From: an uncultured virus (IMG/VR IMGVR_UViG_3300035498_000616)
Lineage: Duplodnaviria; Heunggongvirae; Uroviricota; Caudoviricetes
DNA: 64,000 nt
Strand: one strand, 5' to 3'
IMG/VR virus record: IMGVR_UViG_3300035498_000616
Part shown: positions 11,409-63,384 of the stretch, piece by piece
Layout: every line of letters starts with the position of its first letter
Numbering within the stretch: position 1 is the stretch's first letter
Made by a program: the position numbers and the translations under genes
The notes under the pieces: model-generated
Databases searched by the model: none
What the model saw: the letters and a program-made list of their open reading frames with translations, nothing else
What the model was told of the DNA's origin: nothing

Positions 11409-11456
11409 AAGGGGAATCTCGGTAGCTTCGGCTGCCGGGGTTCCCCTTATTTTTTA
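11407..11456. terminator. bidirectional intrinsic terminator between the convergent blocks
   Basis: GGGGAATCTCGGTAGC-TTCG-GCTGCCGGGGTTCCCC stem with a cUUCGg loop, flanked by an A-run and a T-run. Confidence 0.88.
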
Positions 11457-14400
11457 CTTTTGATCTCTTAACCACATTGTATAAGTGTCTTTAAACGAAC
11501 GAGGCAAAGCTTGAGATCCAATTGCTAACTATCCTAAAGTTTTATCTCCAAATATAAAACTAAATAAATCATTATAAACTCGTGACATTAATTTATAACT
11601 CGCAGGATTGGTAGAATTACCGAAATAATCTAATACCGCAAATGGACCTTTAAAACCATCCCACGAATTACTTGCAGCTTTATAAGTCATTTCAATTAAT
11701 GCATTCTAAACAACTTTAGTTCCGTCACCATTTGTTTTATGATCTTGATATTCTTCTGATAACCAGCATTTAAACATTGCAGCTAATAATCCTCCAATAC
11801 TAATATGACTTAACAACTTACGAAAATTAGCTCTTTGAATTTCATTAGCCCATACATTACTTTTAAAAGATTCCCATCCTCCATTTTTTAATTCTTTAAT
11901 AGTATCAGCTAATGTATAAAAAATTCCTTGAACCATAATTGGAACATCTTCCATAACAGGTAATTTTTCATTACCACCTTCTTCAAGTGTTACAGCGTTC
12001 ATATTTTCATCAAAATACAATTTATTACCTGCTGCGTCAGTTTCTTGTTTCCATTCAGTCTGAGAATTAGTTACTTGTCGTTTTTTACTATAAGTATCTA
12101 CGATTCCGTTAAACCATGTTGAAAACACACAGAAATTTCTTCCAATTGCTGTATTCTCATATTTAGCTTTCTAGCTCTAGTTATATGATCCGTAGATATT
12201 ATCAGCAAATGTTTTAAATGTTTGAATCTATCCTAATGTATAAGCATCAGGAAGATCATCTCCTTCAACTAATTTTGTATTGTTTTCCTAATTAAACTAT
12301 CTAAGTAAACTTAAATAATTACTCCGTTCTGTCCAATATTCTTTTTTACTCTAATCTCCAGATAAATAATTTTTAAATCTCTGATCGAGTTTCCAATCAT
12401 ATTTTAACTTTCCATCAACAATAGAATATGCTTTTTCTACTCCATCATGATGCATTTTAGCAGAAAATAATACCATTCTATTTAAATAATCAGGTCTTCT
12501 TAATGTAGAGAATAGCCAATTTTCATAATTTATGATACCACCTCTTCCTGTTTTCTAACCTTCGGAGATTCGAGCGACATCAATGTTAGAAAAACGATAT
12601 TTAAGATTAAACTAATTAAGTTTAGTTATAGACATTAAATTAGTTGCCCCTTCTTTAAAGACAGTTCCGTAACCATGAGCAATATCAGAAGCATTTAAAT
12701 CAGTTTGAAATTTAATACAGGCAGCAACAGTATTTTCTAACATACCTTGCATTGTATCACGAATGGCTGCTACAGGATTTGCTGCAATATAACACATAGA
12801 AACTGCTTTTCTAATCGGAGCAATAACAGCTTCAACTTTCTAAGAAGATTCTTCCATAATAGAATGATTAAACACACTCACATCAAGGAAATCTTCAATA
12901 GTTTTGATAGTACGTTTAATATTATCTTGATTACCTTCTGTTTCTCCACGAAGATACAAGTCAAGTAATATTCCTTTTGAACGTGTAAGCATTTTATTAT
13001 ATTCAACTGACTAAATATGTTTTTCTAAGAAATCAATAATTAAATTTTCAACATTAGTTTCAAAATAATCTGTTCCTTTTTCAGAAATATAATTTTCACG
13101 TCTATTCTAATCTTCCGATCGAATAAAAGGATTATATGCTTGAAGATTTTCTATATCTCTATTACGAGCTTCTTTTTCCTCATCATTTAATAAATCTTCT
13201 GAAAATTCTTCAAATGCTCCTTTTGGATCTTTTAAACGTTTTGCCCATCTTCTAAAGAACTCGTTAAATCCATGTTTCACATTAGTTCTTCTAGTGGCTA
13301 AAGAAGCTCTTTCAAGAGGAATATCAAGATAATTTGTAGTTGTAGTATTTATATCCTAAGCAATTTTAGGATCATTATAACTTTTATATTTAAAATCTGC
13401 TCCGCGCATTTCAGCACGAATTTTATTAAATTCAAATAGAATTTCTTTTAAAAATTGTAATTCAGCAGGTTTTAATTCATTCTAAACTTCAGGAGAATAA
13501 GGATTTTTAAATCTCATTGTTTTCTCTCCAGTAGTTTTATCAATTTCTAGAAGATTTGTAAATACTCTATTTTGATTACCAATAACACTATTTTCTAATG
13601 GAGTGTAACCAATAGCATCATAATATTTTTTGATAATTTTCTTAATAGGAGCATAACGATCCATCATCTAATCTGCAATAACGTTAGCTGATTTTTGAAA
13701 CATATATCCAACTACTCGAACGTTAGTGTTGCTAATATCCTATGGACGTTTAAAATATTCTTCGAACGAATCAAAGTTCTCGTTAAACAGACTAATGTCT
13801 CCATTGTACACATTAATTGCATGAAGACAAGAAGTATATAATTTAGATACAGATGCAATCAATGGGTTAGGATCGTGACACTATCTCGTTAATTCTTTCG
13901 GGGCAAGTGATATACCATTAGATTCCGCAATATTAGTTAACTAATCAATAATTACTTGTAATTTTTCAAGCTTCCCTTCAATAGTTTGTTGCGATTCAAG
14001 TCCATCAATAATTGTTCCGTCAGTTTTTACTTTTTTAATAATATTATCTTCAAGTCCTTTAATTTCATTTAAATTTACATTAGGATAATCATTAAATACT
14101 TCTTTCCACTATTGAATAAATGTTTCACTTGGATCAATTACATTATCTCGTTTGAAATTATTTTTATCATCAAATGTACTTTCATTTTTCTTAACCACTT
14201 TCAAAATTGTTTCAAACTATGGTAAAAGTAACTACATATTAAACATAGCTCCTTTAGTATTACGATAATTACTCAACGATAATACTTTTAAGTCTCCAAA
14301 TTTAGGTTGAAATGAAAAACTCGGAATAATTTTATTAATTAATGTTAATGTTCTAATTGCTTCGATGTTTCCAAAATTAGATTGCATTGTGAAATTTTCA

Positions 14401-16040
14401 TTATTTAAATCTGGAATAAACTATCCTAACAAATTATCACGTCCTTTAGCTTTACTTGTTTCAGCAATATCAAAAGGAGTTAATGTAATTACATCAACCT
14501 AATTAGTAATCTTGTGTCGAAACATTAAAATATTAGCATTATGTAATACTTCGTTTTCGATAAATTCCCATTTATAATCTGGATCTTCATCAGTGCTTGT
14601 GTTATTAGTTTCAAAATACTTCTGTAAGCTATTACTAATCATTGAATAATTAGATCCTTTAGAAGATGATGTAGAGAAGAATCTTAACTTTTGTCGAAAA
14701 GATTCTTTAATATCCTGAATTACACGTCTAGTAGATTTTTCCATTGCTTCTTTTCCATATAATTCTTCTTCTCTATCACTTACTAAATTAATTAATTCTA
14801 TGTTTTTGTCACCAACATGAGTATCGTCAATTTTAATAATTTCTTTTTCTCCAGGAAGTTTAATATCCCATCCTTTTTGTCCATCTGATCTAGGTTTAGC
14901 AATTCCTTTCCAATGCTATCTTACCCATCCAGTAGCAGATTGTTTAATTCCATGTGAGAAAATATTTGTTCCTCTACCTTGAAAAATTGTACTGAGTTGT
15001 TTATTAACAGATGTAAATATATCTCCTTCTATCACATCAATAGTTGCGTTTGATTCGATAAATTTAGCTGCAACCTTATCATATTTTTCAAGATTATATA
15101 TAGAGTCTTTACTATCGTAACTTTTAGTTCTTCCTACTTCAATATCAATAACGTTATCCAAATTATCATCATATTTTAATTTTACAGGAATTAAATTTAC
15201 ACGAATATTTGCTGCGTTAATTCCGTTAAATTCAAGAATACGTTTTAAAAATGCTAATTGATATTTATACTTTTCTTGTTTTACTGCTCCCCATTCTGAT
15301 TCATTATCTAATGAAGTTTTTAAATTAAATATTTCAATAGTTCCATCAGGTTTAACAGTTAAATAGTCAATATGTCCTAATATTTTTTCAGCTTCTCCTT
15401 TTATTTGTGCTTCAATATTAATATTTCTAAGAAGCTAAGTTTTTTGTCCATCAACAGTTCTATTTCGAAGAAAAATATTTCTCTCAATTTCTGATGTTGC
15501 TGTTTTCATTTTATCATAAATATATTCAAATGCTGTTCCTTGGCATTTTTGAGCAAAACTATAACTATCGTTATCACCTCTAGATGAAACAGCAATTTTA
15601 TGAAAATCAACAGCATTTTTTGCAATTTTATCTTTCCAGTTTTTAGTTAATTTGTTTAAATATTGATCAGCTTCATCCTCTGACATTCCTTCATTCATCA
15701 ATCTAGTTTTAATTAAATCTTTATATTCATCAATAGATAACTGAAACATTGGACGTTTTCCATCAATAGTAAATTTACCAGAATCAACAAATGTTTGAGT
15801 AGTATAATTTGTTCCAGAATTAATATCTGGATCATCACCTAACACATCGTCAGAAGATTTAAAATCATAGTTTTGATTTAAGTCTTTAATCTTATCAACC
15901 GTTTTACTTTGCTAATCAGTTTCTAAACTAAACAAGATAGATAATATATTTGATAAATCTTCGTTAGAAAGTTTTTTAATAAGATTATCATATCCTTCAA
16001 CTACTTCGTTCGTAGCTGTATTTCTATATTTACATGCCAT
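11454..16040 (-). CDS. giant virion RNAP-cluster/cargo protein with a PD-(D/E)xK-like domain, 1528 aa (TAG=Gln)
   Basis: Six ORF-track fragments share one frame and end in TAG. Start MACKYRN at 16040, TAA at 11454. GHIDYLTVKPDGTIEIFNLKTS...YKYQLAF lies at ~15250-15380. Confidence 0.8.
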
Positions 16041-16043
16041 ATA

Positions 16044-18692
16044 TTAACAACCGTATTCTATTATTTTTCCATCCTTGATCATCTATCTTACTAACTAAGA
16101 TAATTTCATATTCTTCTTAACATCTGTTATGTTTTCTGAAATTAACTAACTCATCATATCAACAAATCCAAGATCATTAGCAGATTTTCCTTGTTCGATA
16201 TTTATCCGTTTTTTTAGATTTGTTGTAATAAATTCAAAGTCTTTCTAAATTTCAGAACCTAACTATTTTGCATCAAGCATAGTAAGAAGTTCTTTTTTTC
16301 TAAACATTTTCTTAGCAATTAATGTAACAACTGCTTCTTCAATTTTATCCTATTCAGCAAAATTAGTATATACACTACTAATTCGATTAAGCTCTCCTTT
16401 AAAAGTTCCTAATCCTACGTTCTTAATATAATTAGAAATTATAGTTTGGTATTCACTAGGATATTTAGCTTTAATTACTCCTAGAAAAATATGTGAAATT
16501 TCATGAAATAAATCAGATAAATCTCCATCAGTAGTATTTATATATATTTCTCCATCATGAACAAACCCTCTAATATTATGTAGTTTTTCAGAATTTATTC
16601 CAAGTTTATTTTTATTATTAAATTCTACTAAATCATTAAATGTTAAAGTATGAATTTTAAGTCCTGGAATTTTTTCAACAAAGTAGTTTACAGCATTTTC
16701 CATCGAAGATGTTAAAATATGATTTGCGTCTGTATCGTCATCATAAGTTCCAGAAACATTAATATCGTTTCCGTTATCTTTTAAGAATTTGACAATACCT
16801 GTATTCTAGCTAAGTTTTTGTTCGATAATATATGATACACGCTTTGCTTCACTAATTTGTTTTATGATCTACTCTAAATCTTGACGATGTTTATTTAACT
16901 CTTCGTTTAATTCTCCGTTACCAATTGCTTTATAAGCTAATAATAAAAATGACATTCCATCTTCAGGAGTATGTAAGTTTTCAATACCTTTTAAATAAGA
17001 AAATGTTTGTTTAACAGTATCAATTGTTCCGTTATATATTAATGACTAAAATGTCGAAGGCAATAAAGATAACTTAACTTTAGGTAATTCAATATCTTTA
17101 ACAGTAACTAATCCACCTTCCTGAAATTTTCCATCAATGAACATGACACGTGATTGTTCTTGTTTCATACGATGTAATCCGTTCTCTAATAAATTTTCAG
17201 TTTTATTTAAATAATCAATTTTCTATTTTGCAGCATCAATTGAATCATAAATAGAAGGATATGTTTCAGGATTTACATAATAATTAGAAACTAAATAAGA
17301 TATTTTATTAGTTTTCGGGTTTACATATTTATAAATAAATCTTCCGTTGTACAATCCTTCATTAACAGAACCATCTGAAGTTGTTACTGGAGTAAATAAT
17401 CTTTTAGTATTATAAGCAAAATCATACGTTTTATTTAAATTAGTATATGGAAATTTGATTAATACTGTAGGATTGGAAACTTTTGTAGTAGTCTAATCAG
17501 CAAGAGTATATTTCGCTGTAATATTCCCTTTTTCATTTAAACTAATAGATACGGAATCAGCTATATTTCCTTCATTATCAGTATAAGGATGATTTTGAAA
17601 ATATTCATTTAACTTATCAACTACTTCTTGAGCGTTCTCTTTAACAGCTTTTTTATATTCTTTTGCATCCTTATTATCATTATTAATAGTTTTCCAAACT
17701 AAACTTAAATCTTCTTTGTTAATAGTTTTAGTTTTATCAGAAGTTTTAGTTGTTTCTTTTCCAGAAAATATTGTGTCAAGTTCGTATTTAACAAATTTAG
17801 GATCATCCTAGAAAACTTCTTCTAATACTTCATCAAGTTCTTCTTTAGTATAAGTTTTAAATTTATCATATTCATCAATATCTGATTTGTAATTTTTGAT
17901 TACGTCATATAATTTTTTCATATTAAATTTATAATCAAATTTAGAATCAGAAATATTAATATTATCCAAAGCCATTCTCAAATCACTTTTTCTAATATTA
18001 TATTCAAAATCATCAGTTAACTAATATAATATTTCATTTAAAACTCTTGCGGCATTAATAATTCGTTTGTTTTGCCCTTCTCCAATTTGAATTAAATGAC
18101 AATATTCACTTTTATTATTTAAATAATCAAGTAAAATTGCTTTGGGAGTTGATTTAAACGCTTTAGCTATAACATCCATATCTGGAAATTTCTAAGCATA
18201 ATCTTCTATTAATGCTTCCCCGTTAAGAATATTACTTAATTTCTTTTTTATATTTAAATAATTAAAAAATTTTTTAGCTCCTGCATATCCATTAATTACA
18301 AAAACTTCTTTTCCGTTTGCATCTATTGCTCGACCAAAATATTCAGATCCATTAATTCTCATTTTACTAGCCTAAACAAGAATATAATTATCATCAATAT
18401 CAGCACCTATATCTGGGAACTATTCGGCTAAACTAGGCCATTTCTTTTGCATTGTTTCTAAACTTGTATTGCTAATCCATCTTCCTTCTTTAACATCATT
18501 TTCAGTTAAATTTTTTGACTAACTAGTTAAAATTTCATGTGTTAAAGCATTTCTTGTTTTCTTATCAAGATTAACAATCATATTTGCTATCTGTTCAAAA
18601 GATATAGACTCTCCGTTTTGAATCAGAGAGTCTACATCTTTATTTAATAGCAAAGTTCTTTTATCAAATTTAATTTTTAATTGACAAGCCAT
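16044..18692 (-). CDS. virion protein with a zincin-like metallopeptidase domain, 882 aa (TAG=Gln)
   Basis: Start MACQLKI, end ...IEYGC-TAA. RGFVHDGEIYIN...LFHEISHIFL (HExxH at 16491-16505) with a downstream EEAVV. Confidence 0.8.
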
Positions 18693-18695
18693 ATA

Positions 18696-21600
18696 TTAAC
18701 ATTGAATAAATACGTAAGCCTTACTATTTGTAGAATAATTAGTTAAAATAGTTTTAATAGTATCCAAAATTTCTTGCTTTTGCGCATCATCGAAATCATC
18801 AAAATTTCCATCATAATCAATAGCAGTGTGTAATATAAACTATTTCTACATTTCAGGAAATTCAAATGGACTATTCTCGTAAAAGTTTTTCATTCGCTAT
18901 AATTTTTCATCATTAGTTTCATCGTCAAATTTATTTGGTAAATAATTAGTATATTCTAGATAATCATTATTTCCATATTTAACTTTGACAATATATCCTT
19001 GAATAGGATCTTTAACTTTAATGAATTTTTCTGTAGCAAATCGTTCAGAAAACGAACTAATGGTTGGAGCAATATTAATTAAATAATCATTATTGCTATA
19101 ATCAAAGTTATCTTCGAAACTCATATCACCATCTCCAACAAATTTAAGATATTTATTTAAAATATTATCCTAACCAGATGTTTTCTAGAATATTGTAGTT
19201 AAACGATCGCTACCATATTGATTATAGTTAACTAATAAATTATATAACTACAAAATGTCAGCAATTGTATAGTTAGATTTATCATATTTAATTCCTTCGA
19301 ATTGTGCAATTCCTTGAAGAATTTCTCCATATCCATACTTGGAAATGTTAGATATGTCAGGATTCATCAAGTCAATGTCAGTTGCCAATACTGATCCGTG
19401 ATCATTAGCGGTAACTTTTAAATGTTTTACTAATGGATTAGAACCATAATTATCCTATAAATATTTTAAAAATTCATTTTCAACGAAATGTTTAAACGTC
19501 ATAATTCCGTCTATTGAACTAAGATCAGCATAATCAGTAGTAATACTCTAATAATATTTGTTGAATCCCATTACATATTTATGAAACGGAATAGGACCAC
19601 TTTTCTCAGATCCATCAGTCATTAAGTGATTAGCAAACTAGATAATTTTATATTTATCATAGAAAGAACTTATTTTTCTAAAGTTTTCTTCAGTTAAGTT
19701 CTAATTATTTTTTCGAATTGATTTAAAAATAAATCGAGTTTTTTGTGCAAATTCATTTGAAGCTACAACCGAATTAAATAAATCAAGAATAGCAGAATAC
19801 TAAGGTAGAACTTCCATCATTTTAAAGATATTTGTAGTTCCCATGATTAAATCATAATAATCCGCAACGTGTTTACGATATGATTTATCAGAAAGATATT
19901 TTAAAATATCAAATTTATTAATAATATCTTCATATTCATCAAAAGTTTTTTCTGTAATTTCTTTATTCGGATTATTCTCTTTAAGTTTCTACACTAACTC
20001 TGATCTATTTTTCATAATAATTTCGTCAGATTTTTCTTTCTTTGGTTTATTCTTTCTGTTATCTTCAAACATTTCATTATCCTACTCAACATCATCGTTA
20101 ACTACGTTACTATTTTTAAATATGTCAGCTGCAACGATACCTAATTTGTTTTCACGAGATGTAACAATTCGCTACATCTTATTTAACTTATTAACAATTC
20201 CAACAATATCTGTAGGAATACCTTGATTCAATGATAAAAATGCTGTAGCAAAATCAGATAACTCTGAAGATAAATCATATAATTTTTTAAATTCAGCTAT
20301 ATCTTCATAAAATTCTTGAACTGTTGAATATTTATCGTATGTTTGTCTAAGTTTTTTAATTAAATTTTGACAATAATTTAAATACTAATTCATTTCAATA
20401 TCATTAACTTCAATTTCTCGTAAGTTAATATTTGTATCAGACAAAGCCAAATTAATAGCAGCTCGCATTGCTTTAGAAAGAGGAACAGAATTTATGTCGT
20501 CAACGTTAACTCCGTCGTGTTCAGCGATCCAATTTTTAATTTTATCTTCTCCAACATACTCAAGAACTCTATTTGCAACATAAGTAGATTTCGCAGTAGT
20601 ATAAGATTCATCTGTATCTGGATCATATTCGTAATAACTTCCATGTAAAAATTTACTATGACCAACAATACCTTGAGCTAGATTAATAGCCATAGAAGCA
20701 TTCTTAAACGTTGAATTATTAGAAAATACATTTCGATTAGCTTGACTATCAATAAATTCAGATACGTCAGAAGTCATAAATGATACTAAATCATCAACAT
20801 CGAATCCCATAATAAAACCAAAAATATACATTCTCGCAAAGTTTGTTCCAGAATTAATACGCGCAAGAATTAACTCTTTAGCATTATCGGTTGCCGCTGA
20901 CAATAACTAAGAAATTTTCTAATCAACATAACTATATTTAAATTCATCGTCAGTTACTCCAAATGTATTCATTAATTCTTTTCGAATTCGCTCGTCTTTC
21001 CAATTTAAATCAGGTAAATGATCAATTGTTGTATTTTCTAGATTTTTCTTAGCGCGTCCTTTAATACGATTAAATTTAACATTAAATTTTAATTCATTTC
21101 CTCTACCCTTTTTAAGCATTTCGTTCCAATAATAGAACATATTAAACCAAACTTTTTCACCATTTGCTGCAATACTAATTACGTTTTTACCAACAAGATT
21201 CTAATATTGCATAATATATTTAGTAAAAGGATTTAACATATTTAATGTTTTAACCTAACCGTTTTTTGGAGAATTATTAGCAGCTTTCTACAAATCAGCC
21301 ATTGTTACTGCTGTGTATGCTTGATCTCGATTTCGAATATCATGAGCTACTGCGTAAATATTAGCTGAAGCAGAGTTTTTATATATAGCTTCTGATAAAT
21401 TATGTGGAATAGGAGTAAACTCATGTCTATTAATTTTATCAATTACTTCTTGAGCAAACTCTTTATCAGAACCATCATATTTAACATTTACTTCTTTATC
21501 TTCATCAGTTACATTTACATTAGATTCAACCGAACGAATAATTTCAACCAAATCAAGTAAATCATTGCTAGATTGATATTTGTTAACCGCTTTGGTTATA

Positions 21601-45942: not shown

Positions 45943-46527
45943 TTATTCTGGAACATCAACATATTGAGGAGCCTAAGTATCCTATTTATGTAATACTTTA
46001 AACATATATTTACCTAATGCTTTACAGTATTTGTCGTAATTATCCTTTTTATGTTCATGTGCTTTTTTAGCTTTTTTAATCAGAACTTTTGTGTGAATTC
46101 GACTACAAATACGTTCTCCTCCTTGTAAAAACATTTGTGTTGTTCCATCTGGAGCTAACACCTTCATTTGAAATTTGTCAAGCGTTTCATCATCAATTTC
46201 AAAATCGTCACCTTCAGTTATTCCTGAATCAGTATTTACTTCAAGAATATATTTACAACTAGGAAAATTTACCAATGTTTCATCTTCAGGTTGTGCTTTA
46301 TATACTAAAACTACTTCATCATCACTATTTATTCCAATCTAATCTAATGGAATTTTAGTATCTTTCATCCACATTTGGCGAACTCCTTCATCTTCCCAAA
46401 CAAATAACATACCTTCATCAGGTTGTAGATATTCAACATTTTGTAAACCTTTTTTTCTATCTTCTTCTGATTCAGCTACTTGACAATTATATTCTTTATC
46501 TCCAACAAATACTTTTACACGTTTCAT
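45943..46527 (-). CDS. DUF192-family protein, 194 aa (TAG=Gln)
   Basis: VAESEEDRKKGL..GMLFVW..MWMKDTKIPLD continues through TAG 46339 into KYILEVN; TAA at 45943. Confidence 0.82.
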
Positions 46528-48389: not shown

Positions 48390-49087
48390 TATTTAATTCT
48401 ATTTAAAATATTAACTAATTTCATTCCATCTTTACTAGTATAATTATCATCTACTCCGTTTAAATAATTTAACATGGATTCTGGTCTCCACCACATTCCA
48501 TATAATATTTGTGTCGGAGTTAACCCTTTAGTATTTTTTCCTTTAGTCTATTTCTAAATATCTCTAGCCATTCTACAAGCTGCATCAATTTGAGCATAAG
48601 GATCTTTAGCAAACTATTCTTTTGTTAAGTTAGGTGAATATTTTTTCCTAGTTCCATCTACAAATTGAAACAATCCAATACTTGTTGAATATCCACCTAT
48701 ATTAGGAATATCTGTCTTAAATCCTGATTCAACTTGTGCAATTTTAGTTAAAGAATCTTCTAAATCTTTATATTGTGGATTTTTTGTCATATAGTCAGAC
48801 ATAACTTTTTTAAATTCAGCGGGTGCATTTCTAGATTTAAATGTATTTTCAGAACTATTATATTCAGAACTATTATATGTTGTTGGCTAATTCATTCTAG
48901 AATTAGTCCATCCCTACCATCCGCTGTTATTATTTGTCGGAAGTTCAGATTTTTGTTGTTCTTTGCGCTAAATATAATCTGTCATTCGACTATATCTATC
49001 AGAAGTTGGAGTTACTTCAGGTTGAGTATTTACTATCTTATCAGGCACAACCTAATTATATGATACTAATAAATCATTCAGTTCCAT
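48389..49087 (-). CDS. lytic transglycosylase (SLT/lysozyme-like) protein, 232 aa (TAG=Gln)
   Basis: IAQVESGF (catalytic Glu) ... SIGLFQF; start MELNDLLVSYN at 49087. Confidence 0.8.
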
Positions 49088-50693: not shown

Positions 50694-53600
50694 GCAAAAC
50701 TAACTTGATATACTGTATTTAAGAAATCAATTACTGCTAATTCATCTCCAGTGTATCTAATTCGTACTTTTAAGAATTTATCTTTCAAATCTACTTCTTT
50801 TCTGTTATGATGATTTCCGAAATCATATCCATACACATTAACATCCTATAACCAGTCTGTACTGTCAATTGCACTTACAGGATCTTCATATAATCCTGCT
50901 AAAGCATTATCATCATCGTCATTAGGAAATTCAATTTCACCTTTCTGTTTAATAACGTTAGGAATAGGTGAATTGTTAATATTTAAATTAGGTAATCTAG
51001 TCTTACTATTTTTTGCATAAGTCCAATCAGAATTTTCAGGAGATATTAATAGATTACCAACTTTCTTAGTATATTCATTTTTATAACAAACTACAATTGG
51101 ATTAATGGTAACTTTCCATCTATCTTCTAAATATCTACAATTACCTGCAATTAATGCTCTTGCCCCAGAAACAGAGTGATCTGTATATCTTGAATCAGTT
51201 TCATCTGTTGGTAAATCGTCTATATCAACAGCTAAAGAGTGATTCCATACACGATATTCTTGTCTATTAGGATAATAAACAATTTCTGCTCCAGATAAAT
51301 GTCTATAATCTCGGTTATCAGAGTATGTTGCTTTTACATAATAATCTTCAATTTCATTAATTGTATCCTAGCGAGCATAATAATTATGCGGTAAGTCTGC
51401 TGACCTAGGTTGCTATTTCGGCTATACTTTTAAGAAGTTTCTATCATAAGTAATGTCAACCCCGTTGTATTGCCATAAAGCTTTTAATGCTTCCTATCTA
51501 AAGAACATATTTACTTTGTCTCTAGCAAAATCATAACTCTCTCCGATTACTTCATAATGGAAAGATTCAGGTCTAGCTTTATTTGCTACTAATTCAAGAT
51601 TCTAGAATATCTTATGTGTTGCAGGATCATTAACAACAATACATTCAAATTCAAACGGATGTTGCTTTCCATACCAATAAGCGGGATAAATATCATCTGC
51701 AATATCAATAAGTCCAGCTTGTCCATGTTTCCAGAAATCTGTAGATAAGAACTATGTATTCCATTTAGTAGTAATAGCTACCATAGATTCATAATATCCC
51801 ATATCTATTAAAGAAGTATTAGTATTATATCCTGCTTGTAAATTATAATAAGCATCACTCAAACTAGTTTCTGAACTATCAGTAATAGCTTCAATATTAG
51901 CTCGAATATTTAAATAAGTTACAATTTTATCAGGATTAATCTAATCTGCTTTATCTAAAGTAGGACGTTTACCACTAATGTCTTTATAAATAGCAGTAAG
52001 TTCTGTATTTACTTTACCATCTTCAGGAGCTACTTTATTGCTGTCATAATCAGCATAAGTTCTGTTTTCTTTATTTCTGTAATATAATTCTGAGTGTAAC
52101 TGACTAACATCACCTTTTAAATATAATCCGTAAATCGGATGAATTTTATTTGGATCGTCAGTAGGATATTTCATATCATTAATTATGGTATTATTTTCAT
52201 AAGTATATTCAATCTGTTTAATTTCAAACATTTTATAATTCGATTGAATATCTCTAACTAATTCAAAATTAATTTGATAATCATATCCAGTTGGTAAGAT
52301 TCGATTAGTTAAAGTTAACATTCCGACAAATCCTTCTTTCTAGTCATCATTAAGATAATAATTAAAATAACTAGTTTCTCCAGATTTATTAATATATGAA
52401 ATTTTTAAATTGTAATCATCAACACTTTCATCATTATTAATTATTACATTAGATAAAGTTACTCCGTCAGCAAATGAATTATCTGCGTGACTAACTCCTA
52501 ATTTAGCAATATATTTAGACGTATTTCTATCAAATGAGAATGGAATATTATTTATATTTTCCATATAACTAGGAACCCAACTATAGAATGTTATAAATTT
52601 CTAAAGTAATTCATTCCAACATAAATTCCAAACTTTCTCTTCAAATCCATACGTATTGTCATAGAATGTAAATAACACATCACATTTATAAGCATTATAT
52701 AATGTTTTCACATTTCTAATGCCGATTTTTGGTGTAAGCTCTCTTTCACCAAGAGTAATATTATTATTTAAGAACTCTTGTACTTTTAAATCAGAAATAC
52801 ATTCAAACTAACTTCCATTCGTTCTCCAAATTTTCTTTGCAGCTGTATCAACTCCATACACATATTGATTATTGTTTCCAGACTTTCCTGGAGTCTTTAT
52901 GACACTTTCAGCCCATTGACTACCAAACATATCAGAGAGTACCGTAAGTCCACCATCGAGGACGTTAGAGGTGTTTATATAGATTTTTCCACTACTTACT
53001 TCTCCAGCAACAGCTTTTTCATTAACACCTATTCGAGCAACTCCGTGTTCAAATATACAAATTAAATATGAATCCATTGATATAAGTTTAACAATTTCAC
53101 CATATTCTCTTGTGTAATCTTGATAATGTTTAGCCTAGAATACTCTAAATCCATTTTTATAAGCATCATTAATATGTATATCGGAATACATAATACGAGT
53201 TCCAAACCAATTTTTAATATGAGGAACATTAGGTAATTCAAAGTTCCATTTTTCACTAAGTGATTTAGCGAAACCTTTATTATATACCTAAGATTCTGCT
53301 GTTTTATAACTACCTTCAACACTCATTGGAAGATAAGGGAAAAATCCTTTTGGATGACCACTCATTGCAGTTTCACTAACATCAGAACCATCTAATGTTC
53401 TAATATTTAAATTATTACTTGAACGAACTCTAAATGTACACCACATTCCGAGAGGAACAGCGTTTACATCACCCAAGTTAATTGATTCATATTTTTCTGT
53501 ATTTGACGGATCGTAATTATCTTTCCAAGTATCTTCGTCAACAATTTCATCGTTATATGGGGCAGAAGGATCATTAAAGTTTCTAATAACTCTATGAGTT

Positions 53601-56476
53601 ACCTAACATAAATAACAATCTCCTCTATATAAGTTAAATTGAAATTCTGAAGTAACACTTCCTAAAATATCAGTATTATCTTTAATAACTTCGCTAATTT
53701 CATATCTGTCACTAATAGCATTAAAAATTGAATTATCATTCATTCTAATTTGCATATAGTCATTCATATTAGCAGCTGAATATTCAGGAATATAAATATT
53801 TACTGTTGTAGCTGGAGAGAATTTATTACTTTCATCATTAAAAGCTAAATAAGTTCCAAATACACCTCTAACAATATCTGTATTTATTTTCTTATTAGAT
53901 TCCGTTTCATCATCTGTAACTGTTTCGGAACTTTTAACTTTCTCTGATTTATAATCTTCTCCAATACATTCATATCTCCAAGCTTCTTCTGCTTCACCAG
54001 CTCTTGATCGGAATTTTAATCCGTCAATTCCAACTACTTTAACATTATCGGGAACACCGATAACTTTAAAATTATATCCGTATGTACTAGTGTTATCGTA
54101 GTAAGAAGTAATGTAGAAATGTCTATCAGCATTATTAAAGAAATTATCACTATATCCTGTTAAATCATTACTACTCTATGATATTGCTGTTTCAATATAA
54201 TGTTTATTTCCAGTAAATATCTAGTTAAAATGTGGTTGATTTACTTCGTAGTCAGGACATAAAATACCTTGAATTTTAACATCATTACCATCTCTGATAA
54301 TAATTCGCTAGTCAAAATCTTTAACTAATTGTCTAGATTCATCAGTTTCAACACGTTTATATCCAGAAGGAATTTCTGTATTTCTGCCTTGAAGTTTCTT
54401 TACAGCAGTTGCTCTCTACGCAGCATATTTAATTTCATTAACTACATTATATCCAATTGCTGTAGCAACAACAGCTCCTGCTCCAATAGCTACTCCAACA
54501 CCAATTGCACTAGCAGCAGCTCCGACAGCAGCGATACCTGAAGCTAAAGCTCCGCTAACTACTAATGTTCCAGCCGTAGCAGCACCAGTTGTGGCAGCCG
54601 CGCCAGCAACAGTAACTAATCCAGCAGCACCAGCAGTAAATACACAAGCAGCCGCAACAGCGACAACAGCTACTACAATAGCAGCAACTTTTAAAACGCT
54701 TCCCCAACCTGAAGATTTTTTCTTTAATGTAAATGTATATCTCTAAAGAAATCCTTCAGTAATATAGTTAACCCCATTAATATCTTCAGTTTCTACATAA
54801 GTATCATCTAAAGAATCTGCTAACTATTCAAGTAAACCCCCTTGTGTTGGAATACATGGAGTATAACCAACTTGGTCAACACCAATTGTAATACCTTGTG
54901 CTAATACTAATGGAATACGTTTCTATCTTACAAAGAAGAAACCTTTTACTATTCCATGAAGATAGTCTAGAGTTTCGCTATCAATTCGAATATCTAAACT
55001 GTATATTTTATTAGTATCACCACCAACAGGACTCATTCGAATAACACCTTTTACATTTTCATAAGAAGCAGTAGATTCAGAATTATCTTTCTAAAGTCTA
55101 AATGTTTCTTCGTCGTATGTAATATAATTACGTTGTCCGTCTTTAGTTTTTAAATCAACTTTTGTATAGAAATTTTCATCATAGAGACCAACGTCATTAG
55201 CTCCGCGTATATTAAATACAGGTGTTAATTCTCCGTTTGGTAATATGTAAACAATACCGATACGATATAATTCGTTAGGCCAATAACCAGTTTTATTATA
55301 TATAAATGTTGGATCGTAGTAACCTCTATTAACAGATGTGATACTATAATCTTGATCCATTGATAGAGTATAATCCTCATAAGATACAAATGGTAAGAAA
55401 CGTAATGATAAATCAGAAAGTTCTTCGTAAGGAATATCTTGTCTATGAACATTAGCTAAGAATAACATGTTCTAACAAGTTGCAGATGTTACAGCTGAAT
55501 CAACAATATTATAATCGAGATTAATATCAGAAGAATCAACTTCGGAAACTTGTTCAAATCCTGTAATTAATATATTACAACATCCTGCGTTATTTACTAA
55601 AAACTTTTTCTCAATTTTCTCATAAACTGTATTGATATTCTCATTACCTTCTGCGGTACTTCGAGAATAATAAACAGAAACATAATTATAAGAATAATCA
55701 ATATTAGAAATATAAAACTAAACGTTTTTATAACTATTTTCATTTTTCTATCCAGTATGAATACTTGAAGGAATATCAAATCCAATAAATACACTAACTA
55801 GTCCAGATTCTCCAACAAAATCTGTTTCGTTACCATCTGCATCAGATAACTTAAAATAGAAATGATAATTTCCAACTTTTAAGTTACCTCCAGATGTATT
55901 GCCTTTATATGTAATTTTAGGAATTCTAGTTACACGCTTATAAAGCGATGTATCAATATCAAACTATTCTCCCTAATCATATATATTTGTATCATTATCT
56001 CCTTTTCTATCTACAATTTCGTAGGTATTTTTTCCAGTAGCACTAAATCTACTGTTAATTAATCTTGGAATATTCTTTCCATCATTTAATATAAGATTTA
56101 CAGAGCCGTCATAACTATATTGCGGAATTATATGAACAGGATGTTCTAAATCAAATTGTAATTCGTCAGTATCAAAATCAATTAGCTATCCTTTCTCATA
56201 TAATTCAGGTAAATCTCCTTCCATTTGAACTCCATTTTGAAGCCAATATTGAGGATTTTGTGGATCGTTAACAGTTATTTTAAATTTCTCTGCAAGTTCA
56301 GATTCACTATAATATTTTTCTTTGTAATAATATTTATTCTCTGATAATCTATAATTTCTAAATGGATTATATTCATAAACTAATTTACCACTTGTTGGAA
56401 GTGTATTAGTTAATACTTTTGGATAGATATTCTAATCCAAAACGGATTCCCAAGGAATTTGTACCCAATCTGCCAT
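50690..56476 (-). CDS. tail stabilisation/muzzle-like protein, 1928 aa (TAG=Gln)
   Basis: Five fragments share one frame; beta-rich; YVYGVDTAAKKIWRT and C-terminal DKFLKVRIRYTGD resemble crAss-like tail stabilisation proteins. Confidence 0.75.
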
Positions 56477-59400
56477 TAATCGTTAACCATTTGATAATCA
56501 GGTAATAAAATTTCATCTTTTCTTAAATGTCTAATCATAGCACTATTATTTTTACCAATTGAATAGAAATTAGATCCTCCAGATCTAGAAGTTGTTGTTA
56601 ATGTTAAATCTCCATTAGAATATTTAAACCATTTAGTTATATTTCCAATTGGACATAAATAATATTCAGATTCTCTATCAACGTATAGTGTATCATCAGA
56701 ATCACGTTTATAAATATATCTTCGTTGTTTATATTGGAAAGATGTACTAAACGGAACAAGCTTTTTATTTTCAAAATAATAGATTGATGAATCAGATAAT
56801 CCAGTTTGAGAAATTATATCGAAATCATTACTATCTCCGTCACCTGTAATATGATAAACTTTTACATAATTTTCAGTAATAGTTGTAGAGAAATCAGGAT
56901 TTTTATAATTAACATTTAACTAAAGAGGAACTGTTTTTGTACATCCTTGTAATTTAATATTAACATTATTCTAAGAAATATCGCTAATATTGTCACCCAA
57001 TTCATCAATACGACTCATTAATATATCTAAATAACCTTCTTTTTCTTTATTATAAAGGAATCCTTTCATTAATATATTAGAATTCACATCAGAACTACAT
57101 GTAATCTAATATACAAAATCAGTATTATAAGAGGTTGAGTTGGCAGTTAAATATTGAATACTATCAGTTAAAAATATATTCTATTTCTCATCATTTTTAT
57201 AAACATATAACTAAGTAAACGGCTCTGCGATTATATGTCCAAGTTGCATACTTGAAAAACCAGGAAGATGTTGAATTTCAGAATAATTAGAATTATTTGT
57301 TTGAACAACTTGTTGATTAGAATATGATCCGTTTCCAAAAGTTCTAAAATAAGTATTAAAGAAGTTTACTTCTCCATTACTATCTTTATAACCAATTCCT
57401 AATCGTGGATAAGTTCCTTTAAAATTGTCTTGACCATAAGTATAATTTCCGTTTTTAGTTCCAACTGGACCACTATTAAACTTCCAATTTCCATTCCAAT
57501 ATTTACGAACCGATGAAGATGTTTGAATAGCTCCGACGCCCGATCGTGAATTTCCGTTATTTTCATCATAACCATAATCCTCGGCTGAATCACCGTGATA
57601 ATTCTAAAACGTCCAAATAAAGAATCCATTTGAGAATATATCACGATAAGCATCAATTTTTGACTATTCTTCGCCTTGAAAATAGGTGTTGTCGTTTCCT
57701 TGATATTGTGAATATTGCCAGTTGGATTTTCCGTTTTCAGCATGTATATAGTCAATATTTTCCTATCCACCATTACTTTCCCATAGAACTGTATTAATAG
57801 AACCATCATCTTTATAACTCGCCCTGTGAATATTTTCGTGAAAAACATGACCTTTATATAATTCAAACAACTAAGCTTGATTAAGATAGATTTTATTATT
57901 GCTATACATCATTCCGAATTTATCTAAATCAGATGAAGTATAAATTAACGGTTTAACTACAGCTAATGTTTTAGTATCTTTACTGCAAGTTTTAATGTAT
58001 TTACTGAAGTTAATTAATTCAACGTCAAAAGTAAACTCTGGATTTTCCATTGTAAATTTCTTATAATTATAACCATCTAATGTATTATATTCTCCACTAG
58101 AATTTATATAATATAAGGAATCTTCGCTAGAATCGGTAATATCAAGATCAACTTTAAATGAATTTTGATATAGTTTATAATTCTCAGAATAAATTTCTGC
58201 TCCTATGCCTTTATATACGTTTTCTCCAAATAAACTATCAAGTAATGTTTGACTATAATCAGTTAAAACTAAATCATCAGTTGTATTAATTGGAGCAATT
58301 TCATCATGATTATTAAATGAACTTAATTGAGATTCTTGATAAGTATAATTAGATGTTTTTAAAGTTTTTTCTGCTAATGTTACTTTTACATCAATATTTT
58401 TAACACATTCTGTTGATAAATTAAATGTATTATAAGTATCTTGTAATCCAGCAGAAACAATTCCTTTAATTTTAGTTTTAGCATATTGTACTTGAGCACC
58501 AAGATTATCTAATTCAGTTCCAACAACTAAATCGGGATTTGAATAATCAGTTGATTTACTTACATAATCGTCTATAGTATAACTAACTCCACAATCAAGA
58601 GTTAATTTAGCTTCAAGTTCATTGAAATCATTAGTATTATAATAATACTAATTAAACATAGAATTAGTCCAGAAATAACGGTGAAAATATCTAAAATCAG
58701 ATTTATTATTTTCATCATAATTTCCGTCTGCATCTTTATAACAATATTTAATTACTATTCTAGCAAAATATAAGAGGTTAGAATACAAAGTTCCACCATC
58801 ATTAAAATATAAATCATTAACATTTATAACGTCTTCTGTTGGGTTTCCTGTTTCATCCAATTTACAAAGTACACCGTTATCATTAGTTCCGTAAACATTT
58901 TCAGGTTCATCAGGATTAAATACATTAGTTAATTTAGTATTAGGAGTTAATGTATCATAACTAAACGGTAAACCTTTATGATAAATTGGATTATCATTTG
59001 AATCCTTAGCAGTTAAATTCATATTCGAACTAGCATTGTCCGTGAAAATAACATCCGTAAAAGTTCCAGAATATGAGTTTCTATTTGCAATATGATATGC
59101 AGCACATATTCCGAGATTATCGTAAAATTCTATAACTACTTCTTTAATACCTTTATTCTCTTCACAATAAGCATCTAAACCTACTGTTAAAGTTGTACTA
59201 TTTCCAGAAGTATAGTATTTCCATTTGTTTAATTCAATAGATCCAGTTCCAACCTTTTTAAAATCAATTGAACCTGAATAAGCTAAACTTTTTAGCAAGC
59301 CATAAGACATTGCGGGTGTTATTTCATAATCGTAGACTGCGGTTTCAACATTATTTGGAATTTCAAATGTGTGAAATTCTTTATTTATAGACTAGCCATA

Positions 59401-60489
59401 AACATTGTGAATGGTAATATCAGAAATTTTTGTTTCCGCAATAGTTCCATCATCATTAACTTCTCCAACATCGTACAATCCTTGTTTGGGAATTCCATTT
59501 TCATAATATTGTTTTGCGTAAGGGTATTGGTCGTCTTGATCCGTAGGACGAGTTATTTCTGAGTAGTAATATTTGGTCTCATTAAAAGCTGTAGGAATAG
59601 TTATATCACTAGATATTTTAGATTTAGTTAAAACTATCCATTTTGGATCTGCACTATCAGTTGACCAATTAAGATTCCAAAACAATGTGTGGGTATTTCC
59701 TGTATCTGTTTTATTAGAAAAGATTTGATAAGTACATTCAAAACTATTTATTTTCTCCAGTTCAATTAGTAATGCTAATTTTCCAGATACTTTACTTTGA
59801 AATATTGAATATCCAGATTTTGTTAAATCGCGATAACTATCAATGTCTACTTCGTTAGTTCCAGAAACTTTAGATGTATTTATGAAATATTTGTCATACC
59901 ATTTAACATCAGAATCAAGATAATTAATTTTACCCGAATCTTCAATAGCAACAACATGAACATTAACAATACGATTAGTTGTTTTATCGTCATAATAACT
60001 TAACTTATCTTTGTTTTCATCAACCTAATCCGCATTATCAACATAAATCATAAATTTATCTCCTGGATTTAACTTAGTGTTCATTAATTCCTTTTTAATA
60101 GATTCAGCTTTTATTTCTCCGTTTTCTCCTTGAAAATCACTATTAGAAACACAAACATTTAAATCAGATTGTTCATCACTACTAATATTTCTTTCTGGAC
60201 TAGGAAAACATCCAATCTAAGATCTGTTAATTAAAGGATTATAAGAAACTACATAAATAATATCTCCGTATTCACAAGTTCCAACAGGTATATATCCATC
60301 AGGTAATCTAGCTGTTTCTACTCTACCGTTACCCATATCCTATTGTAATGACATTTCATTACCGTTAAATGTTAATAACGTTGCATTTAAGGCAGAAGTC
60401 ATAAATGTAGCTTGCGTATTATCTGGAACAAAATCCATTACTAAACCATCACCAAAAGTATTTTTAGCGGTAAATGTATTATTTTGCAT
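56476..60489 (-). CDS. tail structural (stabilisation-like) protein, 1337 aa (TAG=Gln)
   Basis: N-terminus MQNNTFTAKNTFGDGLVMD...NATLLTFNGNE...PVG..EYGDIIYVVSYNP...IGCFPSP. Confidence 0.75.
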
Positions 60490-61097
60490 TAATTACGCTT
60501 TTTACATGTTCTATTTTTATCTTTAATAAATTGATAATCATAATTAAATAAAAGAATATCTTTAAGCTTTAAAGGCTCTCTTTCTAAAATTAATTCTGCC
60601 TTATCCGTGTCTAGTTTTTCGATAAACATAGTATCACCTTTTTCAATAATCCACGGAACACGAAATACAACTGTTTTCGAACTTTCTCGGATACAACATT
60701 CATCGTATATTTTATAGAGGAGAATCTTTTCAAAATGAAAATGTTTTCTAGGTCTTCCTCGTTTATGTTTCTAAGCTAAATAATCCTAATACTGTTTATT
60801 GTTTAACGCAAAGTAATAATATCCATCCCACTCAACGTGTTTACGTTTATATAACACTTTAAGTTTAATAGACATCTTTCTTTTATAATAGTAAAAGAAT
60901 TTTAATGAGTCATTCATTAAACGCCCGCAATAAAACCAGAAATCTTTTTTTCTTACTAGAGTATCACCTCCATAACTATTGATTAAATATAATTGTTTTA
61001 TTCCATAAAGCATAATTTTTTCAATATCTTTTCTGGGAATTGTAGGATATAAATCAGCAATTTGATCGTAATAATCGTTAATAGTTTTCTAAATCAT
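60489..61097 (-). CDS. basic protein, possibly IHF/HU-like, 202 aa (TAG=Gln)
   Basis: Start MI(Q)KTINDYY; in frame with ORF 60786; TAATG overlaps at both ends. The function is inferred from crAss-like synteny. Confidence 0.6.
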
Positions 61098-61543
61098 TAA
61101 TAATTCTTTCCTTCGTTTGTGTGATCAGTAATCTTCTATTTCATTTTAGGATTAAGGTAAATCCATTTCTCTCTAGGAGTTCTCTTTTCACTTTGTAATT
61201 CTAACATTAACTAGTAACCACAAAAATCAGAAGTTAAAAAATCCACATCTCTAAATTTACCATTTCGAAATGCTCTTTTAAATTCATCTTCTTCTGTGCG
61301 TTTCATATACATATAACCTTGGGATTTTCCTACTCCAGGGAATTTAAAATGTACATTATTTTCTATAATATCATCTACAATAAGCTTCAATCCACTTGCA
61401 AATATAGATGCTGATAAATCTCTTTTGGATCCATCAGAATAAATTTCTTTACATTGTTCACTAGACATTTCTAACTTATCTACTGAGAAATTTAAGAAAA
61501 ATTCTTTAGTAGAAAAGGCATGTCCCATTGCGTAATTTGACAT
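61097..61543 (-). CDS. IHF/HU-like protein, 148 aa (TAG=Gln)
   Basis: IFASGLKLIVDDIIENNVHFKFPG has an HU/IHF-like helix-strand pattern; reads through TAG 61211 to TAA 61097. Confidence 0.65.
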
Positions 61544-61579
61544 AAAAATAAAAATAGGGAGACAAATTGCCTCCCTATT
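61544..61579 (-). terminator. intrinsic terminator
   Basis: ATAGGGAGGC-aattt-GTCTCCCTAT followed by TTTTATTTTT on the minus strand. Confidence 0.75.
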
Positions 61580-62273
61580 ACATTATCGGTTTATAAGATT
61601 TATTGTGTGTCTTTCGGTTAAATGATGATTGCACATCCAAGATTGCATCCATCTCTTCTTGAGATATATGTTCTGGAACACGTGCGGCATCACAATGAAA
61701 TAACCATCTTTGATGTAAATCTGTAGCCATTTTAAGCAATGCCTAATTATTTGTCTGAATTGCTTTCTAATATGTTTTAGTATAAGCAATAAATTCGGCA
61801 ACTGCTAAGGCTTCTTTATTGTTTAAATAAGGAAGATCATCTTCATCTAGTATCTATTTATGATATAGAATGTGAACTCTACCTAATCCTTTATTTACGT
61901 ATAATTTGTCTCCTACTCGTTTATATTTAACGAATTTTCCGCTTACGTAAAAAGGAGAATTGAAAGCTTTTGTACTTTCTATGTAGTTTTCAACAAACAG
62001 TGAATTTGTATCTCCGCCTTGACCATGTTGATTACTGGTATAATTCCAGTCTTCAGGACCACAATATGTTACAGCTTCTATTCTAAATACATCACATGGC
62101 AATTGAATAGAACCGTCTTTGCAATTAACTGGTAAAATTTCATGTACTAGATAGGTATTTTTATTTCCTATCATATTGTATCCAACTAAACCAATTTCTT
62201 CAAGATCCTCTAAATCACCTTCAATTTGATACAAGGTCTAGGCAAGACTTATAGCGTAGTGAAAATTTTCCAT
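61578..62273 (-). CDS. tail tubular/ring protein, 231 aa (TAG=Gln)
   Basis: Start MENFHYAISLA; IQLPCDVFRIEAV...ILDEDDLPYL..KEALAVAEFIAY pattern of podovirus ring proteins. Confidence 0.7.
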
Positions 62274-62965
62274 TATGTTATATATTGCTAATCATTCGGC
62301 AACTTAGGTGCAGCTGCTTGTCTGTAATAATAAAGCTTTTCTTTTGTCAATTTATCTTTAACTAACTAATCAATGAAAGATAGATTAACATCAGGTCCAT
62401 TTAACTCTTCAGTATTACAACAACTATACTAATTAAGTTGTCGCGGGTCTTTAAAAACTGCTACAACAGAAACCTATTCTAAAAAGGGTGCATTAAATAT
62501 AAAGCAATCTAACATTCCGTTTGCATTAGGAGCATAATCTATCCAAACATAGGGTTTGTTCTATGCTCGCTTTTTATATTTACGAGTTTGTAATTCAGTT
62601 AGCGAACTAACAACCTAAAACTAATTGCGTCTATCAGTTGAGCCTATATATTCAATAGATTGTTTACCAAACTATGAAATAACCTGTGGAATTTGGAAGT
62701 GGGCTACCACTGTATCATTGTCATTATGTTTTCCACATTTACATCGCTCTAATGATTCACAATCTACATCTATACAGTTTATGGCAATTAACAAATCTTT
62801 TATCGGATAAATGCCTTTTAAAAAGTATTCGTTAATTATCTATAGTCTACAAGCAACAATTTCATCTTGTAACTATTCCATATTCATAGATAAGTTCTGG
62901 TGATAACCTCTTAAACCAGAGACTACATCATTTCTAATCTACGATGCTAACTTCTCAATATACAT
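62273..62965 (-). CDS. putative ring/structural protein, 230 aa (TAG=Gln; absent from the ORF track)
   Basis: MYIEKLAS(Q)IRNDVVSGLRG...VVAVFKDPR...KLYYYRQ; TAATG overlaps at both ends. Confidence 0.72.
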
Positions 62966-63384
62966 TATAAATCGTTTGGATTGTTTTTGATTCTGTGTTC
63001 ACAAGTAAAATTGTAACACTTTATACCGTTTAAATATGCAACTTTTGATTTTAGTTCTGCAATTTCGTTACACTTTGCAGAAATAGCTTTGGATTTCTCT
63101 AACATTATACTTTCAACTTGTTCTCTTACCTGTGAAATTTGTTTACGGAATTCTGCTTCCAACTCATGATAATCTTTTATATATTTATCACAAGTTTTCT
63201 ACAAATAATCATACTAATCCTATCGTAAATCCGTTATCTTTTGCTAAACCTCGACTTCCGAGTTCTCTGCCTCTGCTGCAATTTTTCTGTTTTTACTTTT
63301 AAATGTAAAAATATAAGTTATTGTTGCTCCGAGTCCTCCACTTCCAATAATGGCTAAAATCCATTCTAAAAGCTACTATTCCAT
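62965..63384 (-). CDS. membrane-anchored coiled-coil protein, putative holin/lysis protein, 139 aa (TAG=Gln)
   Basis: ME(Q)(Q)LLEWILAIIGSGGLGATITYIFTF (one TM helix), then a coiled coil and a C-terminal CYNFTC. Confidence 0.62.

Follow-up and report, generated by a model that had tools for sequence, protein, structure and literature searches.

The amber codon TAG is read as glutamine in the late genes of an uncultured virus of the Caudoviricetes (IMG/VR record IMGVR_UViG_3300035498_000616), likely a Zeta-group crAss-like phage, of which a stretch of 64,000 nucleotides (the window) was analysed. Such recoding needs a suppressor tRNA with anticodon CUA, and the original prediction, made from the letters of this stretch and a list of its open reading frames (ORFs), had stated that none lies within the window. 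We located its gene on a second, identical contig, where it is split inside the anticodon by what appears to be a group I intron with an HNH gene. The same prediction held that recoding works as an early-to-late translational switch. Here the recoding itself, its late bias and the requirement for a tRNA stood, and a switch shaped by selection remained unsupported. The explanation we favour, at a probability of roughly 0.75, combines late reading of TAG as glutamine, one late-strand tRNA(CUA), an intron that is a passenger, and timing set by the position of the tRNA.

Glutamine at TAG in the late genes

Coding coverage was calculated from ORFs of at least 100 amino acids (aa) under translation tables 11, 15 and 4. 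Between 11454 and 63384, coverage rose from 0.276 with table 11 to 0.991 with table 15; table 4 reached 0.310 and was rejected as the code of this block. Positions 1-11453 barely moved (0.772 with table 11, 0.797 with table 15). For the entire window the increase was from 0.37 to 0.96, a gain above the 5% taken to mark code 15. Eighteen contiguous minus-strand genes fill the block, with 272 in-frame TAG among 17,235 codons, and the two shifted frames hold 754 and 2,701 TAA plus TGA. TAG thus makes up 272 of the 757 glutamine codons of the late strand. The predicted coupling of neighbouring genes was found at 10 of the 18 junctions between 19 late genes (63429-63995 counted), six with TAATG and four with ATGA overlaps. 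Recoding of the whole block, as proposed, applies to 11454-63384 overall and fails for two minus-strand genes free of TAG, 45572-45832 (0/16 glutamine codons) and 63429-63995 (0/6).

To assign the residue, the 18 late proteins, with X at each TAG, were aligned to five relatives, and only well-aligned columns were used. In 331 TAG columns the homologs show 99 TAG, 73 Gln and 32 Lys, and fewer of each other residue. Window CAA/CAG columns, taken for comparison, show 128 Gln and 120 TAG (248/452). For the 232 non-TAG homolog residues a glutamine profile fits best (log-likelihood -575; Lys reaches -752 and Ala -963). Gln ranks first among 20 residues, 176 log units ahead, and these likelihoods rule out all others, Lys and Ala included. 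A separate tally at the loci flanking the major capsid protein (MCP) gene of relatives also points to Gln. The motif sites were as originally described: GDPR*LG at 33584, RIPAQTL*SFM at 21864, KF*SGG and KY*QGG (42254, 42281) beside KFQEGG (45817, 17129). Opposite TAG 33584 the relative G008 has CAG; opposite 21864 there is CAA in G008, CAG in G022 and TAG in both G018 and G021.

The early block behaves differently. In 21 plus-strand early ORFs, hand-picked from 48 listed, none of 90 glutamine codons is TAG, compared with 272 of 757 late ones (Fisher P = 8e-17), and homologs of early genes show 0 TAG versus 113 CAA/CAG. TAA or TGA terminates 20 of the 21 ORFs, the exception being, as predicted, the intron-3 endonuclease gene. 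In the early genes of four relatives, however, no depletion of TAG stops was detected (26/306 ORFs versus 5/45 in crAss001, P = 0.57). A second stop follows within 8 codons in 19 of 26 cases after TAG and in 133 of 280 others (P = 0.014 with a post hoc cut-off; rank test P = 0.067). A whole-genome ORF tally, which may include calling artefacts, counts 37-63 TAG on the early strand of each relative. The case for code-neutral early genes is firm as regards sense codons and weak as regards stops.

The share of TAG differs among 33 late genes (33% overall, heterogeneity P = 4e-6). TAG is absent from the MCP gene (0/15 glutamine codons), two of its neighbours and the genes for PDDEXK nuclease, Cpn10 and the intron HNH protein. 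In the MCP genes of relatives, 74 of 616 glutamine codons are TAG, so these genes are depleted rather than free. The highest shares occur in a lysin-like gene (5/8) and a membrane gene (6/10), neither significant. Along genes TAG is evenly spread (Kolmogorov-Smirnov P = 0.20), which rules out enrichment at 5' ends, and the two TAGs at codons 3 and 4 of 62965-63384 are not conserved in relatives. The ratio of TAG to CAG is 272:45 (6:1) and that of Leu TTR to CTR codons 985:62 (16:1), leaving TAG below the expectation from C-to-T drift. Even spread and this shortfall both speak against a switch tuned by selection, which is weakened further by the TAG-free capsid gene and neighbours and by early TAG stops that are not depleted. 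A better fit is drift that is tolerated, combined with selection that disfavours TAG where proteins are early or abundant.

Read-through would have to be efficient. The virion RNA polymerase gene with its 61 TAG codons would give 4% full-length product at 95% read-through per codon, and 54% at 99%. The proposed check for phage release factor or glutaminyl-tRNA synthetase (GlnRS) genes came back empty: neither PF00472 (RF-1) nor PF00749 (tRNA-synt_1c) was found in 18 records, 17 of them near-complete relatives. The suppressor would therefore compete with host release factor 1 (RF1), unless an antagonist exists.

A suppressor tRNA gene divided by an intron

Neither ARAGORN nor the Rfam model RF00005 found a tRNA in the window. 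Contig G003 (also L004, under which its positions are given; 62,416 bases) agrees with the window at 14,327/14,327 bases and adds 48 kb rightward. ARAGORN and RF00005 scans of this and three further contigs (G001-G004) likewise returned no tRNA. In G003 the suppressor escapes both because the intron divides it within its anticodon, between bases 35 and 36. The two tRNA halves were found by BLAST with the intact suppressors of relatives (Table 1). Among 144 junction pairs, three combine a U-ending exon, a G-ending intron and an ARAGORN call, and only 3087|4057 yields a full-length cloverleaf with a 7-base loop; its anticodon is CUA. ARAGORN in intron mode did detect the split gene, as a Lys(CTT) tRNA with a distorted stem. 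This call was rejected, since there is no terminal G at its junction and the splice site is set by the intact alleles.

Together the two exons form a perfectly paired cloverleaf. The tRNA body carries U1-A72, G2-C71, G3-C70 and U35, which we take to be the identity set of E. coli GlnRS; base 73 is A, and presumably G in E. coli. Its D-arm pattern is shared by 23 tRNA-Gln(CUG) loci out of 40 retrieved. The only host-type promoter-like site in the first 8 kb of G003 is at L004:2723-2753 and resembles what we take to be the Bacteroidetes promoter consensus. Small genes flank the suppressor at L004:2759-2995 and 4099-4404, with no family or usable look-alike. The former is kept in 6 of 6 genomes compared and is shortened here, with TAG at codon 9; the latter stops at TAG, with TAA six codons later.

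The intron has a compact core, located after the HNH gene. Core helices P2-P8 were scored in six long introns, where 98.3% of cells are paired, compared with 36-42% in slid controls. Compensatory pairs number 21 of 40 overall and 2 of 6 in P7, a level reached in 0 of 500 shuffles. The covariation argues strongly for a common group I-type core in these six introns. A GGA guide for P1 is present at the expected position in 17 of 17 introns. Alignment of five short introns shows the U-G pair of P1 kept (5/5) and P7 invariant; in L096 a long P1 extension folds and the minimum-energy duplex moves the exon pairing by one base. The terminal omega-G is found in 17/17 introns, although the 3' search itself required a G. 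Intron core, U-G splice pair and terminal G are conserved in all 17 split loci. The divided gene structure is directly observed; its CUA anticodon would arise only after the predicted splicing.

The distribution of split and intact forms was followed in IMG/VR. A pattern consisting of the suppressor 5' half and a base other than A returned 40 loci, of which 23 are intact tRNA-Gln(CUG) genes and 17 are broken at one and the same base (35/36). Each of the 17 has a single 3' half that rebuilds CUA, and 14 distinct introns are represented. Ten loci carry inserts of about 1 kb with an ORF of 265-301 aa, and seven carry inserts of 219-245 nucleotides (nt). Among the 14 carrier records searched, 11 contain a crAss TerL gene, all 11 with in-frame TAG, and GenBank MT835539 has the same split suppressor. 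The intact form is far commoner: its pattern gave at least 112 matches, and ARAGORN confirmed CUA in 78 of the 80 listed. In relatives of this phage the suppressor is intact in 16 of 17 pattern matches, and the gene for the CUA tRNA heads the late block, on the late strand and away from the tRNA cluster. In relative G022 an intact tRNA(CUA) at 148025-148098 (-) is followed 19 bases on by a free-standing homolog of the intron HNH gene, with two in-frame TAG, which is a possible source of the intron endonuclease. From sequence comparison, a majority of intact alleles together with a free-standing HNH homolog is what one expects of a mobile element. Because the intact form is so much commoner, the intron resembles a passenger, most likely a selfish one, rather than a timer.

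Related structures were seen elsewhere. In L159:2440-3500 (GenBank PV686213, Bohxovirus) an unannotated tRNA 5' half ending in CUCU is followed by an HNH gene, a group I-like core and a 3' half. This intron seems to end in A, and a join requiring G did not recover it. Another suppressor 5' half, followed by an apparent intron beginning with A, lies at L186:101-228. The early strand of two relatives encodes a second, divergent CUA-like tRNA (L082:12205-12275 (+) and G008:19976-20046 (+)).

Competing explanations

Under the explanation we favour, a Zeta crAss-like phage would translate its late strand with TAG as glutamine in a host of standard code. A single phage tRNA(CUA), built on a tRNA-Gln body and encoded at the head of the late strand, would be made with the late transcript, presumably charged by host GlnRS, and would compete with host RF1. 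The tRNA gene of this lineage is divided between bases 35 and 36 by what would be a mobile group I intron encoding an HNH protein. Early genes would be needed before the tRNA exists, so that in-frame TAG would be purged from them. In late genes TAG would be tolerated and accumulate by CAG-to-TAG drift in an AT-rich genome, and incomplete read-through would exclude it from the most abundant virion proteins. Timing would follow from the position of the tRNA, with the intron as a passenger.

Several observations weigh against this explanation. The suppressor is known from the identical contig rather than the window, introns can vary between strains, and about 75 kb of the genome, estimated from the size of relatives, lies outside the covered sequence. 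Rfam group I models gave no match to the suppressor intron at E 5 or E 0.5, and the scored P2-P8 structure was derived in part with RNAalifold from the very alignment that was scored, P7 being placed manually. No joint across the intron was found in assembled contigs of four metatranscriptomes. Two RNA contigs span the boundary between 5' exon and intron (0 and 4 differences, depth 3-4) and could be precursor or DNA; one crosses the anticodon arm without an intron, and its different T-arm assigns it to a relative. The RNA contigs as a whole are neutral with regard to splicing. As to drift and selection, the drift comparison rests on Leu codons, which have a bias of their own, 52 of 59 MCP matches of relatives hold 1-3 TAG, and an expression proxy compared gene by gene shows no correlation with the share of TAG (Spearman -0.11, P = 0.56). 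The tRNA alone may also be insufficient for the 61-TAG polymerase gene, and an unrecognised RF1 antagonist may be present.

Recoding could instead be a selected timer, with splicing, in intron carriers, holding back late proteins until the ribozyme frees the suppressor. The late-strand site of the tRNA, away from the tRNA cluster, would suit this, as would the absence of in-frame TAG from the early block and its homologs, the top TAG shares in the lysin-like and membrane genes (not significant), the occurrence of two different intron types at one site, and the bias towards lysis genes described in the preprint of Borges et al. (bioRxiv 10.1101/2021.08.26.457843). Yet matches to the intact pattern far outnumber the 17 split loci, sister phages of the same layout are mostly intron-free, the intron brings its own endonuclease, whose homolog stands free beside an intact suppressor in G022, and neither a 5' bias of TAG nor conservation of the TAGs at codons 3 and 4 was found. 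We consider a selected timer improbable, and it is equally doubtful that a ribozyme gates the genetic code, with the rate of group I splicing setting when virion and lysis proteins can be made. Were such a gate real, splicing might respond to GTP, to Mg or to ribosomes translating the HNH gene, which has its start codon within the P1 extension, and intron-hidden genes would explain part of the recoded phages that have no detectable suppressor.

A tentative alternative, less improbable than the timer and compatible with the explanation we favour, is that the suppressor is kept mainly to harm host translation or defence by read-through, the late TAGs being a by-product. This was proposed in PMC7886860 and PMC12386605, where Zeta phages with a CUA tRNA and no recoding are reported in the sections available, and TAG below the drift expectation agrees with it; placement on the late strand, however, suits the late genes of the phage equally well. 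A dead split tRNA, with another phage tRNA, a host suppressor or an RF1-deficient host accounting for the reading of TAG, seems very improbable. The second CUA-like tRNA of some relatives, the lack of spliced RNA in the metatranscriptome contigs and the part of the genome beyond the covered sequence leave room for it. Against it stand the perfectly pairing exons and the core, U-G pair and terminal G kept in 17/17 loci, and purging TAG from early genes would be senseless in a host that already reads TAG. The reading of the TAGs as true stops, from decayed genes or assembly errors, or as another residue, is practically untenable. Just 172 of the 331 well-aligned TAG columns are Gln or TAG in homologs, but the CAA/CAG columns of the window look alike, and 99% coverage, coupled junctions, an identical independent contig and the need for table 15 at all MCP-flanking loci of relatives oppose it.

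Genome context and known systems

The features of the window and of the suppressor locus are collected in Table 1. Some late proteins lack family assignments: for the 3623-aa RNA polymerase no PHROGs or Pfam match was found, although its DLDID sequence corresponds to DxDxD, the crAss-like RNA polymerase motif named in the available text of PMC7886860. The 45572-45832 gene has 45% GC and no family match; KFQEGG at its start is a motif common to several large late proteins. In the early block, Rfam group I models at gathering score left the three PolB introns unmatched. A site at 2224-2253 (+) in PolB intron 1, immediately upstream of the NUMOD1 gene, fits what we take to be the Bacteroidetes promoter consensus.

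Table 1. Coordinates of the early and late blocks, their genes and the suppressor locus
Feature	Position	Strand	Details
Early/replication block, no in-frame TAG	192..11408	+	PolB, RNA ligase, polynucleotide kinase, thymidylate synthase, small genes
PolB, four exons, three group I-type introns	1593..6419	+	
PolB exons	~1596-1964, 2696-3619, 4804-4932, 5925-6416	+	By alignment to unbroken PolB of G022
PolB intron genes	2253-2642 (NUMOD1); 3950-4771 and 5141-5905 (GIY-YIG)	+	
Sole TAG stop of 21 early ORFs, intron-3 GIY-YIG gene	5903..5911	+	TAG-AAA-TAA; read-through gives two more residues
Late/virion block read with TAG as Gln	11454..63384	-	18 genes, 272 in-frame TAG
1528-aa gene, large-protein (transcription/ejection) block	11454..16040	-	27 TAG; no family match
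882-aa gene	16044..18692	-	17 TAG; FHEISH, presumably an HExxH-like motif
3623-aa virion RNA polymerase	18696..29567	-	61 TAG including 21864; DxDxD motif (DLDID)
3035-aa protein with superfamily 1 helicase domain	29561..38668	-	35 TAG including 33584; AAA_30, Viral_helicase1
609-aa and 1671-aa genes	38665..45506	-	13 and 25 TAG; KF/KY-Q-xGG motifs, Q as TAG or CAR
86-aa Gln-rich gene	45572..45832	-	0 TAG/16 Gln (P = 0.002)
DUF192 gene, 621-aa gene, SLT transglycosylase, 539-aa gene	45943..50693	-	3, 7, 7 and 8 TAG
1928-aa and 1337-aa large structural (probably tail) genes	50690..60489	-	29 and 14 TAG; role from gene order
Five short structural genes	60489..63384	-	Including CrAss_Ring_1 at 61578-62273
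Membrane-anchored coiled-coil gene	62965-63384	-	6/10 Gln are TAG, including codons 3 and 4
3' part of 335-aa structural gene, TAG-free	63429..64000	-	Full gene: 10/10 Gln codons CAG
Split suppressor tRNA	Contig G003, outside the window, ~44-45 kb past its right end	Late-block strand	
Suppressor 5' exon	L004:3053-3087		
Suppressor group I intron (putative)	L004:3088-4056		969 nt
Suppressor 3' exon	L004:4057-4095		
Intron HNH gene	L004:3103-3900		PF01844 above cut-off

Contig G003 encodes a crAss capsid protein (PF23898), TerL, portal, PDDEXK nuclease and a reverse transcriptase; PF23898, PF24228 and PF12705 score above cut-off, and the portal match is weak. Together with ring and tail proteins and a large RNA polymerase with DxDxD, these are the marks of a crAss-like phage. 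TerL matches Crassvirales, sharing 44-46% identity with two unclassified records and 23-29% with those classified families that were listed. Relatives have MCP identities of 80-84% (one 58%), measure 175-193 kb when complete, need table 15 and carry 11-29 tRNAs. G008, with an MCP 83% identical, has the tRNA order of phage_1 (zeta_4), minus Ala only; phage_1 (Ivanova 2014) is placed in subgroup zeta_4 by a row in supplement 4 of PMC7886860. Size and tRNA count, taken from complete relatives, agree with the Zeta group (145-192 kb, many tRNAs, high intron load). Membership in this group is likely because of the size and tRNA load of relatives, the tRNA order shared by G008 and phage_1, and the three PolB introns. 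Megablast of 40000-64000 against GenBank phages gave no match, and no contig contained an exact copy of 30 bases at the left end of the window. The large proteins of the RNA polymerase block (18696-38668) are nearer to G018 (42-50%) than to G008 (31-37%), and the short structural genes are nearer to G008, which points to a possible exchange of modules.

Further elements were noted on the contigs. A reverse transcriptase gene lies among tail-fibre genes on the identical contig (L005:128-1339) and is probably part of a diversity-generating retroelement. The early strand of G003 carries a RAGATH-14-like RNA (L004:1010-1259 (-); 74.6 bits, E 8e-12, below gathering score), with a type III hammerhead-like ribozyme (40.6 bits) immediately after it. 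A tmRNA-like gene occurs in three relatives (L073:900-1232, L075:11716-12047, L078:4032-4431) and might matter for ribosomes that stall at TAG.

The recoding is genuine and ordinary: earlier publications already describe late recoding, dual-coded early blocks and suppressors that head the late strand. Beta, Delta and Zeta phages that read TAG as Gln in late genes, with an imperfect match to suppressors, are described in the accessible portion of PMC7886860, and Zeta suppressors are tabulated in PMC12386605. Borges et al. state in their preprint that TAG suppressors occur in 40% of such genomes and propose the timing model. Gln at TAG was identified by proteomics in two other crAss-like phages, according to the consulted part of PMC9523058. 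The Mgcod preprint (bioRxiv 10.1101/2022.06.29.495998) lists, in the text available, 225 of 303 genomes with a Sup-CTA tRNA, which usually heads the late strand, and describes the switch as soft. The present phage resembles those genomes in its dual-coded early block and in a recoded strand whose 5' end carries the Sup-CTA tRNA; the Mgcod tRNA search would overlook a split gene, and the same text mentions no introns. With the code-15 Zeta phages of PMC7886860 it shares late TAG as Gln, many group I introns, and relatives of the size and tRNA load given above. Unlike its code-15 Zeta relatives it has PolB, found among four complete relatives only in G022, its share of TAG is about one third of late Gln codons versus about half or more in G008, G018 and G021, and its suppressor gene is intron-split.

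Introns of cyanobacterial tRNA-Leu and tRNA-fMet and of Azoarcus tRNA-Ile, as covered in the available pages of PMC3984707, share insertion in the anticodon loop after a U, the G-U pair, the terminal G, a P3/P7 pseudoknot and an optional endonuclease. According to the same 2014 review, phage group I introns were then known only from protein-coding genes. Here, unlike in bacterial tRNA introns, the intron interrupts a phage suppressor tRNA gene within its anticodon (35/36) and has no Rfam match. The endonuclease of the cyanobacterial tRNA-fMet intron is presumably HNH-type. Lak phages also have introns in tRNAs of a code-15 phage, those described in the accessible text of PMC6784885 lying in Tyr and Thr tRNAs and being termed enigmatic, whereas here the suppressor is affected. 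Theta ribozymes likewise tie a ribozyme to suppressor maturation, but they trim 3' trailers, and the word 'intron' is absent from the main text of PMC10879173. Unlike the code-change modules of Lak or Jade type, no phage RF2 or GlnRS gene was found in the 18 records of relatives. A literature survey, covering mostly titles and abstracts and few subscription journals, returned no report of a phage suppressor tRNA interrupted by a group I intron. In Patescibacteria tRNAs, group I introns reportedly occur at 35/36, an account that the survey did not return. The intron-split suppressor is a well-supported variant that we did not find in print.

Recoding alone would make this one more Zeta phage on a known list, and the split suppressor matters more. 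The 61 TAG codons of the polymerase gene, in a lineage whose relatives have no release factor or synthetase gene, sharpen the question of how host RF1 is outcompeted. The split suppressor also offers a short construct for experiments that need no culture of the phage. It places a putative group I intron in a phage tRNA gene, and the whole late programme would hang on one splicing event.

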